Origin: an uncultured Gammaproteobacteria bacterium
GTDB taxonomy: Bacteria > Patescibacteriota > Patescibacteriia > Patescibacteriales > UBA12465
NCBI GenBank assembly: GCA_964645545.1
Contig: CAZXZR010000003.1
Coordinates: forward strand, 1-47,743
Direction of reading: 5' to 3'
DNA length: 47,743 nt
Shown here: in pieces, positions 5,428-32,157 of the stretch
Numbering within the stretch: position 1 is the first letter of the stretch
Layout of the letters: every line of letters begins with the position of its first letter
The notes under the pieces: model-generated
The model's database searches: none
The model's input: only the letters and a program-made list of their open reading frames with translations
What the model was told of the DNA's origin: nothing
Position numbers and translations under genes: made by a program

Positions 5428-7792
5428 TTAAACCAGCTTGCGCACCCTCATCTTCTTGTAGAAAATCTGCTTGACCAGTTCCACAGTGAAGAGATAAATA
5501 AGGACCGTCAAGAAGATAACCAGAAGCGCCCGGCCGGGCACGACCTGAAAACCGAAAAAGCCGCCGACCCGGCCCTGGGTCAAAAGGAAACCGACTAAAA
5601 CCGCGCCCAAGGTCGTGAAAACCAGATAGCGGCTCGGCCGCGACTGGAGGAAAGGGATTTTTTGCGTGCGGATGCTTCGGTTTCCGCAAATAGTCTTCAT
5701 CCACGTTGTCGGCCGGGATGGAAAGCTGGGAGCCGTCGTAGAGGAAGTTGTTGAGCAGAATCTGGCCGGCAGTCATGGGGAAGAAGGGCAGGAAAAGGCT
5801 GGCGCCGATCAAGGAAAACATATTGCCGAAATTGGAGCTTAGGCCCATAAGCAGGTATTTCATGGTGTTGCCGAAGCTTTTGCGGCCTTCAAGGACCCCG
5901 GCCATCAGTTCTTTTAAGCCTTTTTCCAGGAGAATGATGTCGGCCGTGTCTTTGGCCACGTCCACGGCGTTGTCCACGGAAATGCCGACGTCGGCGCTTT
6001 TCAAAGACGGGGCGTCGTTGATGCCGTCGCCCAAGTAGCCGACGGTCAGGCCGTGGCGCTTCAATTCGGCGATGATTTTTTCCTTTTGGCTCGGTGAGAG
6101 GCGGGCGCAAATCGTCGCCGTTTTCGTTTTCAAATAGATTTCCTCGTCGCTCAAAAGGTTCAAATCCAGGTCGTCGCCGGTGACGATGCCCTCGATTTCC
6201 AGGTCCAGGTCGCGGCAGATTTTTTCCGTGACCAAGGGGCAATCGCCGGTCAGGATCTTTATGTCCACCCCGTGCGCTTTCATGAAAACCAAGGTTTCCT
6301 TGACGCCGGCCTTGGGCGGATCGTAGAAAGCCATAAAACCCAACAGGGCCAAGTCGCGTTCCTCGCCGACTTCGTAACGCTTCTTTTCCCGCCCGATGTT
6401 TTTGGCGGCGATGGCCAGCAGCCTTAAGCCCTGCCGGCTTAAATCATCATAGACGGCCCGGGCTTTTTTTAAGACCGCCTTTGTCAGGACTTCGTTTTTC
6501 CCGTTTTCTTGGTAAAACGAGCTGATCTTGAAGATTTCTTCCGGCGCCCCCTTGGTGACCATAGTCAGGCGGCCGGCCGTCTTATAGATAATGGAGGAGC
6601 GCTTGCGGCTGAAGCTGTAAGGCAGCTCCTCCACTTTTTCATAAGCGCGCAAATCCATTGGCCGATAATCCAGGATCGCCTGATCCAGGATGCTCTTGAT
6701 GCCGGTTTCAAAATAGCCGTTAAGGTAGGCTTGGCTGAAGACGGAAAGGGAATCGCGGCCGAAAAGGTCCACGTGTTTTATCAGCGTGATGCGGTTTTCG
6801 GTCAAGGTGCCGGTCTTGTCCGTGCATAAGACGTCCATGGAACCGAAAGTGGGGATGGCGTTGAGCTTTTTTACAAGGACGCCGCCCCGGCTCATTTTCA
6901 AGGCGCCCTTGGCCAGGTTGACGCTGATTATCATCGGCAAAAGTTCGGGCGTGATGCCCACGGCCACGGCCAGGGCGAAGAGGAAGGAATTAAGGATGCC
7001 CTTATGGTTCAAGGCGTTGAGGAAAAAGATGACGGCGACGATGAAGGCGATGACGCGGACGATGAGGAGGCCGAAGCCGCGGATGCCTTTTTCAAAGGCG
7101 TTCGCTTCCGCCGGCCGCCGGAGTTTTTCGGCCAGGCGGCCCAACTCGGTTTGCGCGCCGATGGCGGTGACCAGGAATTGGCTGAAGCCGGAGACGACGT
7201 TGGTGCCGGAAAAGACGACGTCGTTTTCCGGCCCGTATTTTTCCACGGGCAGACTTTCGCCGGTGAGCGCGGATTCGTTGACGAAGAAATCATTGGCGCT
7301 GATGATTTTGCCGTCGGCCGGCACGATGTCGCCGGCCGCCAGGAAAACTAGGTCGCCGGGCACGAGGTATTTGACGTTCAGGGAAATTTTTCGGCCGTCA
7401 CGCCGGACATCGGCGGCAATGGCCAGCCGACGGGTCAGTTTGTCGCTGACGCCGGTAGCCTTGCGCTCCTGGTAAAAATTCAGGCCGATGCTCAAGAATA
7501 TTATGAGGAGAATGATGGTCAGGCTGTGCATCTGGCCGGTCAGACCGGAAATCAGGGCGGCGAAAATCAGGACGATGAGGAGCGGATTTTTGAAATAATT
7601 TAGGAATTGGAGGATGGGCGGGACTTTCTTGGCTTTGGCGATCTGGTTGTAGCCGAAAAGGCGGGAGCGCTTGATGGCTTCCTTGGTCGTGAGGCCCCCG
7701 GGAGAAGAAGCGGTCAAGCGGAAAAATTCTTCCAGGCCGGTCTTTTTCAGGGCGGACGCGCTTAGGGCCGGATTTTTTAAAGCAGTTTTCAT
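5428..7792 (-). pseudogene. mgtA: Magnesium-translocating P-type ATPase with an internal deletion and frameshift near the C-terminus
   Basis: TGES, AVGITPELLP, DKTGTLT, GDGINDAP, SSNFGNMFS motifs. After DEDYLRKPKH (~5673) the sequence jumps to IRTQKIPFLQSRPS in another frame that ends at 5428. Confidence 0.85.
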
Positions 7793-28317: not shown

Positions 28318-29127
28318 TTAGCGGGCGATTGTCAGCCAGGCGATAACGGCGGCCGCCAGGGCCAGGCGGTACCAGCCGAAAGGCCGGAAGTCGTGCTTTT
28401 GGATGAATTTTAGGAAGAAGCGGACGGCGATGACGGCGGTCAAGAAGGCGGCGATGAAGCCCAAGAGCCAGACGAACTTGTCGGCACCGGGCAAAAGGCC
28501 CAAAGCCCGCCGGCTTTCGTAAAGGTCTAGGACCGTGGCCGCCAGCATGGTCGGAATGGCCAGGAGGAAAGAAAATTCCACGATACTCTTCCGTTTTACG
28601 CCCAAAGCCAAACCGCCGATGATGGTCGCGGCCGCCCGGGAAACGCCCGGGACGATCGCCAGGGCCTGGAAAAGCCCGATCCAAAGCGCCTGTCGGTAAG
28701 AAATTTTTTCCAGAACGAGATCGCCGCCTGCCGCTGTTTGGAGAAGGGCGTTTTTTTCCGCGTAATACCTTTCAAAGAGAAGCAAAACAAGGCCGCCGAC
28801 CGCCAAGGCGCCGGCGACGACGTAAGCGTTGCCGAGCAAAAAGTTTTTGACGAGTTTATAGAAAATCAAACCGATAAGTGCGGTCGGCAGGAAAGCCGCC
28901 AGGATTTTTCCGATCAATTCCCAGCTGGACCAGAGCCGGCGCCAATAAAGGACGACCACGGCTAGAATCGCGCCCAACTGTATGGAAATTTCAAAAGTTT
29001 TTAAAAAGGCCGTCGGCGGAATCCGCAACCAGGCGCTGGCCAGGATGAGATGGGCCGTAGAAGATATGGGCAGGAATTCGGTTAGGCCTTCGATTATACC
29101 TAATATTAGGCCATGGATGATGGTCAT
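28318..29127 (-). CDS. uppP: Undecaprenyl-diphosphate phosphatase
   Basis: EGLTEFLPISSTAH, PGVSRAAATI, EFSFLLAIP. Confidence 0.96.
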   Translation of the reverse strand: MTIIHGLILGIIEGLTEFLPISSTAHLILASAWLRIPPTAFLKTFEISIQLGAILAVVVLYWRRLWSSWELIGKILAAFLPTALIGLIFYKLVKNFLLGNAYVVAGALAVGGLVLLLFERYYAEKNALLQTAAGGDLVLEKISYRQALWIGLFQALAIVPGVSRAAATIIGGLALGVKRKSIVEFSFLLAIPTMLAATVLDLYESRRALGLLPGADKFVWLLGFIAAFLTAVIAVRFFLKFIQKHDFRPFGWYRLALAAAVIAWLTIAR

Positions 29128-29312
29128 ACTTTTTTGATGATTTATCTTATTTTACCCCAATTATTATATCTTAAAGTTAGTTTTTGGAGTAGTATTGACA
29201 TTGTTTATTATTTATGTTTTGATATACCAATAATAATTTCAGACCCATTTTGCTATTTTTTAGGGGCCTAGTGTCTAAAAATAGTTCATTCACAATTTAA
29301 ATTTATAGCATC

Positions 29313-29920
29313 ATGAACGAAATGTGTGCTTTTATCGGAAAAACGCATGAGTTTCTTCTGGCTCTCGAGAAAGCCGGTTTTACCGACGAACTCATCCAGG
29401 AGATCATCAATTCCAAGGATAACGAATTGGCAATCAAAATGTATGCCGCCGTTATGCCCACCAAACGGTTAAATCGGATAATAACGAAGTAATCCTTGAT
29501 TGTACCGTCGATTACACTCGGACCGTCGAGGAAATGGTCAAAGCCGGTAAATATGACTGGTCAAACGGCGATATTACTCCCGACCATTATCCTATTCCGC
29601 CCGACAAAGCCGGAAAATCCGAAGCCATCAGCACCAGAGTTTTCCATTTCAACCGCTCCATATTCAGCCCAGACGCTGTCAAAGAAATGGAAAAAGAAGG
29701 CTATCGTCCGGCTACCGCCCATGAAATCATGGCCTTCGGCGAAAAGAACCCCGAATTGCAAAGGCAATTCCCAATCGTTGCCCTCGGCTCGGTTTGGCGC
29801 AACGACATCAATCGCTATGTCCTGGTTCTCAACGAGAACGATTCCAAGCGCAAGCTCAACCTCAACAACTGGGACGGCGACTGGAATGACAACTACCGCT
29901 TTCTGGGTGTCCGCCAGTGG
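29313..29920 (+). pseudogene. DGR-target-like (CLec-type C-terminus) gene, frameshifted, stop codon apparently lost
   Basis: 29313-29492 (MNEMCAFIGKTHEFLLALEK...) shifts near 29460 into QTVKSDNNEVILDCTVDYTRTVEEMVKAGKYDW...RPATAHE...WDGDWNDNYRFLGVR; the frame then runs on to 30058 through non-coding-looking sequence. Confidence 0.6.
29795..29920 (+). repeat. DGR variable/template-repeat-like segment (partner not in window)
   Basis: 7 AAC and 2 AAT codons in about 40 codons, ending RFLGVR. Confidence 0.55.
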
Positions 29921-29929
29921 CTAATTTTT

Positions 29930-29951
29930 CTCCGTCAAATTCTTGGCGGAG
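29930..29951. other. Hairpin just downstream of the VR/TR-like segment
   Basis: CTCCGTCAA-ATTC-TTGGCGGAG with flanking T runs. Confidence 0.6.
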
Positions 29952-30105
29952 TTTTTCAAAATTGCTTCCGCCAACCGCCTAACATTTTGCCGCACGGAAA
30001 TAGCTTTAAGATAAGAGGAGAATTGTCAAATAACTACTGGTTATCTAATAATAACTAATTATATTAAGCTTTTTGAGATTTTAATCCGAATAACGTCCGC
30101 CACCC

Positions 30106-30134
30106 TTGACAGCCGTTTCTTTTCGCTTTAAAAT
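30106..30134 (+). promoter_or_regulatory. Sigma70 promoter of groESL
   Basis: TTGACA, 17 bp, TAAAAT. Confidence 0.85.
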
Positions 30135-30144
30135 AATAATAAGC

Positions 30145-30171
30145 TTAGCAGTCATATTATTAGACTGCTAA
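30145..30171. promoter_or_regulatory. CIRCE element, symmetric variant
   Basis: TTAGCAGTC-N9-GACTGCTAA between the promoter and groES. Confidence 0.92.

Positions 30172-30200: not shown

Positions 30201-32157
<1,957 letters not shown>

Follow-up and report, generated by a model that had tools for sequence, protein, structure and literature searches.

We found that positions 29195–30074 of the window, by which we mean the whole 47,743-nt stretch of DNA that was analysed, probably (at a rough probability of 0.8) contain a collapsed, non-functional DGR remnant of the Patescibacteria-type clade, inserted between bacA/uppP and groES. The relic spans 880 nt, compared with 2,633 nt for the intact cassette of the metagenome contig L100, and its AAC-rich repeat, judged from alignment with relatives, is the template repeat (TR) itself and not a variable repeat (VR). 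The assembled genome lacks all four features of a functional DGR cassette, namely a TR/VR pair, an intact reverse transcriptase (RT), Avd and a VR end, and the locus would presumably no longer have a function.

Architecture of the relic

The closest relatives of the relic lie on the metagenome contigs L100, L101, L102 and L104 (72–77% protein identity). Comparison with L100 by blastn returned three blocks. The first (window 29195–29921, L100 4257–4982, 80% identity) comprised the target with its VR, the second (window 29784–30014, L100 5319–5550, 86%) the TR and the sequence behind it, and the third (window 29993–30074, L100 6809–6889, 77%) the 3' end of a 333-aa RT gene. Blocks 1 and 2 were confirmed by L101 and L102, where the TR block reached 89%. 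This colinear homology runs across target, TR, avd and RT, which supports descent from a DGR cassette; with the avd and RT stubs described below, it bears out the suggestion of the first-pass annotation that the locus might be a decayed DGR.

The homology to L100 begins about 118 nt upstream of the target ATG, and positions 29195..29312 (plus strand) form the upstream end of the cassette, with a conserved leader and a probable promoter region. The target follows in two overlapping plus-strand frames, an ORF at 29313..29492 (59 aa) and a frame that is open from 29423 to 30058. The N-terminal 49 codons (29313..29459, plus strand), which match the homologues P0002, P0003 and P0005, lie in the first frame and end at a 1-nt frame-shifting deletion; compared with three of three close relatives (L100, L101 and L104), one nucleotide is missing near 29459, and the frameshift separates these codons from the remainder of the target. 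The target core (29462..29784, plus strand) lies in the second frame and, according to the homologues and an AlphaFold model, corresponds to the invariant scaffold of a C-type-lectin-like domain. Fused to it in frame is the AAC-rich stretch at 29785..29919 (plus strand), assigned to the TR by its TR-state columns and TGG end. A TR-adjacent hairpin (9 bp, 4-nt loop) with a T-run occupies 29930..29956 (plus strand) and aligns with L100 and L101. Behind it, a tblastn search that used the L027 and L037 avd proteins as queries located an avd stub on the minus strand (29956..29992), consisting of the last 11 codons (GKMLGGWRKQF) and the stop. The avd homology ends after 29992, and the minus-strand frames upstream of the stub are full of stops. 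The RT gene stub, its last 21 codons and stop (29993..30058, plus strand), was identified by blastn against the 3' end of the L100 RT gene and reads HGNSFKIRGELSNNYWLSNNN before the stop, compared with HGNSFKIKEELLNNYWLADNH in L100. The same blastn comparison placed the final bases of cassette homology, past the RT stop, at 30059..30074 (plus strand). The earlier statement that no RT is visible in the window held in that there is no RT gene beyond this stub, and needed amending in that the last 21 RT codons and the stop are present.

In the frame open from 29423 to 30058, the first ATG lies at 29534 and begins a 174-aa ORF (29534..30058). This frame is open by chance through the target, the TR, the hairpin, the antisense avd stub and the RT stub, and it stops at the RT's own stop. 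As a result of the deletions, the ORF is a chimera in which the target core is followed by the TR, the non-coding hairpin, the tail of avd in antisense and the tail of the RT; it would be annotated as a hypothetical protein, yet it unites pieces of four features. Its read-through tail QPPNILP arises because the target runs on into the TR flank and the antisense end of avd, and the same tail is present in the homologue P0008. A Pfam search of the two ORFs and of the joined frame returned just a sub-threshold SpuA_C match (E 0.14), which was disregarded.

AlphaFold modelled the 152-residue core of the target with a pLDDT of 93.1 and a pTM of 0.88. All listed Foldseek rows were C-type lectin or C-type-lectin-like domains, with weak E values of 7e-3 to 0.1. 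VIA-align, run against structural representatives, matched the model to Bd2740-C (8oks, Z 8.2) and also to PvdO, the DGR variable protein TvpA (2y3c, Z 6.8, rmsd 3.8 over 134 residues), an FGE paralogue (1y4j, Z 6.6) and Mtd (1yu0, Z 6.3, rmsd 3.3, 108 residues). These matches, whose Z values lie in the middling range of the tool, support a predicted C-type-lectin-like fold for the target domain, as the first-pass annotation had anticipated. The internal ATG at 29534 would start past the first beta strand of the model, so a folded product from this codon is unlikely.

The target family and the nature of the AAC-rich repeat

The peptide WRNDINRYVLVLNENDSKRKLNLNNWDGDWNDNYRFLGVR, encoded at 29795–29914 (plus strand), uses 7 AAC and 2 AAT in 40 codons. 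Against the genome background, in which AAC makes up 1.97% of the codons of ORFs of at least 250 aa, the probability of at least 7 AAC in 40 codons was 1.2e-5 and that of at least 9 Asn was 5e-5. Third-codon-position adenines accounted for 0/31 in 29795–29914 versus 26/101 in the 111 remaining codons of this frame. The hairpin at 29930–29951 has 9 pairs and a 4-nt loop and is followed by TTTTT. The AAC probability, the adenine positions and the hairpin together indicate that the richness in Asn codons is real and non-random, and the initial description of an AAC-rich 3' end followed by a hairpin was correct.

At E ≤ 0.01 the target has 325 homologues, of which the best scores 3e-79; most are Patescibacteria proteins annotated as hypothetical and about 185–190 aa long. 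The identity of the target to P0002–P0005 is 72–77%. Neither P0002 nor the target protein matched a Pfam family. The aligned proteins have a well-conserved scaffold, hypervariable columns are confined to the last ~45 residues, and these columns are exactly the positions at which the window has Asn. Nearly all homologues end in RFLGVRK followed by the stop. An end motif could be recognised in 112 homologues. In 106 of these, the last 46 residues contain 0–4 Asn, and in the other 6 they contain 6–11; a read-through tail was present in three of the latter six.

A scan of species-representative genomes gave 80 loci, and the later pool comprised 104 related loci, 33 of which have an RT about 0.9–1.0 kb downstream of the target. 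In about 25 loci, a second copy of the last 126–142 nt of the gene lies some 340–370 nt downstream, and the mismatches between the two copies fall nearly all at adenines of the downstream copy (L009, 20/20; L010, 24/24; L029, 18/18; L037, 23/23; L047, 23/23; other loci, 14–25 adenine mismatches of 16–27 total). This pattern indicates that the window's gene belongs to a genuine DGR target family, which agrees with the first-pass view of a DGR-target-like gene. That annotation had named beforehand what would speak against it: no TR and RT in the genome or relatives, mismatches not specific to adenines, and no C-type-lectin-like fold. The genome was found to hold no TR/VR pair and no intact RT, while the mismatches in the relatives are adenine-specific and the predicted fold is C-type-lectin-like.

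In the intact cassettes (L027, L037, L010 and L100), the order is target with VR and stop, spacer, TR, hairpin, antisense avd and RT. Target and RT (325–343 aa) lie on the plus strand and avd on the minus strand, and the spacer measures about 340–370 nt. The L100 RT matched RVT_1 at E 5.7e-25, and the L100 avd (5491..5757, minus strand) matched Pfam bAvd at E 1.3e-9 with 38.9 bits, just under the 40-bit cut-off. The antisense position of avd between TR and RT can be seen, for example, at L027:5189–5698, L037:6730–7297 and L100:5319–5873. A GC-rich hairpin with a T-run lies within ~10–25 nt behind the TR in nearly all of 23 sequences (single-sequence folds; L027 weak), with a stem sequence that varies by locus. 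When 22 of these hairpins were aligned with MAFFT, the 5' arms came out of register, and for this reason RNAalifold gave a consensus with 0 pairs.

Two further observations concern the intact loci. CTTGG motifs occur in 1–4 copies in the first 100 nt past the VR stop in 19 of 25 loci (for example L009:1344–1443 and L032:6402–6501), compared with a background of 0.03–0.35 per 100 nt; the copies are often ~8–16 nt apart, and a terminator-like hairpin lies behind them. They may be a target-side recognition element, and they are missing from the window because the corresponding interval is deleted. In addition, just upstream of the L100 target, at L100:2258–4180, there is another avd-like gene (bAvd E 6.9e-11) together with another DGR-type RT, of 425 aa, so that two RTs flank one target there.

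We compared the window's repeat with both repeats of its relatives in a joint alignment. The window agreed with the TR at 21/21 columns that differ between TR and VR in L101, and again at 21/21 in L102, and with the VR at none. In the comparison with L100, it agreed with the TR at 16/20 differing columns and with the VR at 3/20, and some of the discordant columns belong to the flanks, where the alignment begins or ends. The sequence at the 3' boundary is ...CGCAAGTAG (Lys, stop) in the VRs, ...CGCAAGTGGCTAG in the TRs of the relatives and ...CGCCAGTGGCTAA in the window; the window repeat ends in TGG as TRs do and lacks the TAG stop of VRs. The next 70 nt of the window match the post-TR sequence of L100 and L101 nearly base for base, in the order hairpin, T-run and reverse complement of the avd C-terminus, and in related loci the hairpin element comes after the TR, not after the VR. 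The minus strand at 29991..29956 encodes GKMLGGWRKQF and a stop, compared with GRMLGGWRRQF (stop) in L100, GKIIGGWKKLF (stop) in L027 and GRMLGGWRRQ... in L037. The TR state at every adenine-variable column, the TGG end and the TR-specific flanks together argue that the repeat is a TR fused to the target, and the earlier reading of the gene end as a barely diversified VR could not be maintained. A solitary AAC-rich gene end can therefore be a TR rather than a VR, and it is the 3' flank that separates a VR (stop and VR-type flank) from a TR (hairpin and avd).

By blastn against L100, L101 and L102, the TR and its flank are 86–89% identical, compared with 78–80% for the gene body. This difference, the retention of all TR adenines and the intact hairpin would suit a solo template donor, whose TR and hairpin would still be transcribed and would serve an RT encoded elsewhere in diversifying a remote VR. 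We regard this role as very improbable, since no VR, intact RT or avd was found in 714,785 bases at 93.5% completeness, and the same better conservation is to be expected of an element that died recently and whose ancestor was under constraint.

Lesions, assembly and the rest of the genome

Three lesions account for the present state of the cassette. In the first, a deletion between equivalent points of two direct repeats (~474 nt relative to L100) would have taken out the VR and the spacer and joined the 5' part of the target in frame to the TR, with the result that the gene carries unmutagenised, all-Asn template sequence and has no stop codon. The second is a ~1,281-nt deletion (L100 about 5528–6808) that left 11 avd codons and 21 RT codons, and the third the 1-nt deletion at about codon 49 of the target. 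By arithmetic on L100, the losses of ~474 nt and ~1,281 nt account for the difference between the intact 2,633 nt and the 880 nt of the relic. A working DGR has a VR-type 3' flank (IMH-like end and stop) on an intact target ORF; the window has a TR-type end on a frameshifted ORF. The deletion of avd and RT and the frameshift mark a dead cassette, whatever the origin of the first lesion, which we infer to have arisen by VR–TR recombination in the cell rather than in the assembler.

The first lesion has a rival explanation in assembly collapse, in which heterogeneous VR reads make the assembler pass from the target into the uniform TR; even then, the loss of avd and RT and the frameshift may be genuine. 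Five sequencing runs contain part of the stretch, and the short-read contigs (Logan) of four were compared with the window; the comparison listed no difference, joint or indel. A contig of run X2, which may share a campaign with the source sample, covers 29300–30114 with 0 differences and crosses the frameshift and both junctions. In run X1, contig pieces end at 29806 and restart at 29849, leaving 29807–29848 without cover among the listed contigs, a gap that counts neither for nor against the deletion. Runs X3 and X4 gave short parts only, plus TR-like pieces of other organisms. Short-read contigs drop rare variants, and X2 may not be independent of the source sample; as regards the first lesion, some of the population may therefore carry an intact cassette, or the assembler may have jumped from VR to TR.

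In favour of an assembly origin, short-read assemblies contain further collapsed members of the family, whose crossover points differ. In the MAG contig L011 (L011:3724–5724), the repeat is diversified but its 3' flank is of the TR type; avd and RT are intact there, and a separate TR is missing. In P0095, a protein from a Logan run assembly, the 5' half of the repeat is diversified, the 3' half is all-Asn and the tail is antisense avd; P0008 and P0075, also from Logan run assemblies, show a similar collapse. The crossover point in the repeat lies at the 3' end in L011, in the middle in P0095 and at the 5' end in P0008, and these four forms may fit a recurrent assembly artefact as well as recurrent biology. 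In the window, an assembler crossover would need to fall within ~17 nt, between the repeat start at 29785 and the first TR-state adenines at ~29802. This interval is shorter than the usual assembly word, which would make such a jump unlikely. The X2 contig, from a second run, also argues against collapse, as do the lack of a counterpart elsewhere in the assembly for the missing avd or target-family sequence and the other two lesions, which independently point to a dead cassette. On balance we consider it unlikely that the first lesion is an assembly artefact, and we retain in-cell recombination as its probable cause.

To a lesser degree of confidence, VR–TR recombination could be a recurrent natural route of self-destruction of Patescibacteria DGRs that locks the target in the all-Asn template state, a generalisation that we hold only tentatively. 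If it is true, the relic represents one such event with every TR adenine still intact, and P0008, P0075, P0095 and L011 are independent events with different crossover points. Deletions would then put an end to DGRs of this group long before their TR adenines had slowly eroded in the way that theory predicts.

We also searched the remaining assembly (714,785 bases in 38 contigs, 93.5% complete) for the missing partners. No second copy of 29760–29960 was found, the best other match being 16 nt, and self-comparison of the genome gave 0 repeat pairs with at least 70% of mismatches at A or T of one copy. The earlier remark that no second repeat copy is visible in the window thus extends to the assembled genome. 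Searches by tblastn found no other target-family member and, with two avd queries, no other avd match in the assembly. The single RVT_1 match in the genome lies on contig C16, beside ftsZ, and carries the motif IGNLTSQ. Residues 9–67 and 148–331 of intact RTs align to it in two different frames; residues 68–147, including the CDIRKFF motif, are absent, and Pfam RVT_1 covers profile positions 111–205 only.

C16 begins with ~13 codons of antisense avd, and C16:1–842 (genome G000, locus L007) represents a second, distinct broken DGR cassette beside ftsZ, which runs off the assembly because the contig starts inside the avd gene. We considered whether the C16 RT is the missing part of the window's cassette and rejected this; it has its own C-terminus and ~36% identity to the L100-type RT, and the window's RT stub is L100-like, unlike the C16 RT.

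These data bear on the proposal of the first-pass annotation that the gene is a working orphan target with a barely diversified VR, for which a TR and an RT at another site in the genome would act in trans. Solo family members are indeed common, since 27 of the 50 related loci whose flanks both reach at least 3 kb contain no RT, C16 offers a DGR-type RT with IGNLTSQ, and P0006 combines an Asn-rich C-terminal repeat (9 Asn) with a normal ...VRK stop, which makes it an undiversified VR of the sort that the annotation envisaged. The window copy, however, has a TR-type 3' flank, no stop and no VR-type downstream region, its target gene is frameshifted, and the genome holds no TR-like second copy and no TR/VR pair. 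The C16 RT lacks ~80 residues including a catalytic motif, and the avd and RT stubs immediately past the repeat are the remains of a destroyed local cassette. Service in trans is therefore a reasonable idea for the family and a misfit for the window copy, for which we give it scarcely any credence. At 93.5% completeness, the missing part of the genome could still harbour an intact RT or a remote VR.

Insertion site and comparison with known DGRs

The decayed cassette lies between two genes. On one side, bacA/uppP (28318..29127, minus strand; Pfam BacA, E 3e-74) precedes it, and on the other groES (30201..30491; Cpn10, E 5.5e-31) follows, the gap between them measuring 1,073 nt. Ten same-genus loci with groES were compared. 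In six of them bacA adjoins groES directly and divergently, ~150–190 nt away; in a seventh (L120) just 76 bacA residues are present at the locus end, and in two bacA was not found. The gap of 1,073 nt versus ~150–190 nt points to a lineage-specific insertion of the cassette that decayed afterwards. In the remaining locus, from a same-genus genome of another species (G044), the bacA–groES gap contains an unrelated 201-aa ORF (L116:713–1318), which suggests that this intergenic site accepts insertions. The best match of the target among same-genus reference genomes is 51% identical, with no close orthologue there, and the genomic neighbourhood of L100, the closest intact cassette, differs from that of the window.

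Two sites were noted just past the relic. A groES promoter-like site (TTGACA-17-TAAAAT, 11/12 matches) lies at 30106–30134, and a perfect 9-nt inverted repeat, TTAGCAGTC-N9-GACTGCTAA, lies directly downstream of the relic at 30145–30171. The latter is CIRCE-like and presumably resembles the CIRCE/HrcA operator.

The relic has several implications beyond its own locus. DGR surveys with tools that need an RT and a TR/VR pair miss relics of this kind, and contigs in which VR and TR have collapsed, be it in the cell or through assembly, may skew the numbers of targets and of 'inactive' DGRs that such surveys report. A reduced genome of 0.7 Mb with two dead DGR cassettes offers a snapshot of element loss. 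Knowledge of the DGR mechanism is unchanged by it: the feature is a decayed member of an already understood kind of element, the Patescibacteria DGR, and is ordinary in kind. A partly poorly targeted literature search found no description of VR–TR deletion as a route of DGR loss. The parts of a theory preprint that treat DGR loss describe it as proceeding by erosion of TR adenines or by RT mutation (bioRxiv 10.64898/2026.02.18.706561); in the window, every TR adenine is intact while deletions destroyed the cassette.

At the level of fold, the window target resembles TvpA of Treponema denticola (2y3c) and FGE-type C-type lectin folds. It differs from them in having 10–13% identity and no detectable sequence similarity, and its domain measures ~140 residues.

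The nearest known systems are the Patescibacteria (CPR) DGRs, on which Paul et al. reportedly worked in 2017. An (I/L)GxxxSQ-type motif is a hallmark of DGR RTs, and the RT in this group of relatives has such a motif; the adenine-specific TR/VR mismatches of the window's relatives are a further likeness to CPR DGRs. Roux et al. 2021 (PMC8144416) name the Patescibacteria (CPR) DGRs 'DGR clade 2' and describe CPR targets as small proteins with no recognisable Pfam domain and a C-terminal VR. The family studied here shares with those DGRs the host group and the small, Pfam-less target with a C-terminal VR, it also agrees with the paper's description of VR regions, and from host and target type we infer that the relatives belong to 'clade 2'. 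Compared with working CPR DGRs, the window copy, with no VR, 11 avd codons and 21 RT codons, is a remnant.

In the reference system, the DGR of Bordetella phage BPP-1 (PMC5758913), the layout is mtd-avd-TR-brt. The intact relatives share with it a target of C-type lectin fold with a 3' VR, as well as avd, TR and RT. In contrast to BPP-1, the window's clade has avd on the opposite strand, between TR and RT, with a hairpin and T-run directly behind the TR and CTTGG-like motifs behind the VR, and the window itself retains fragments only of this arrangement.
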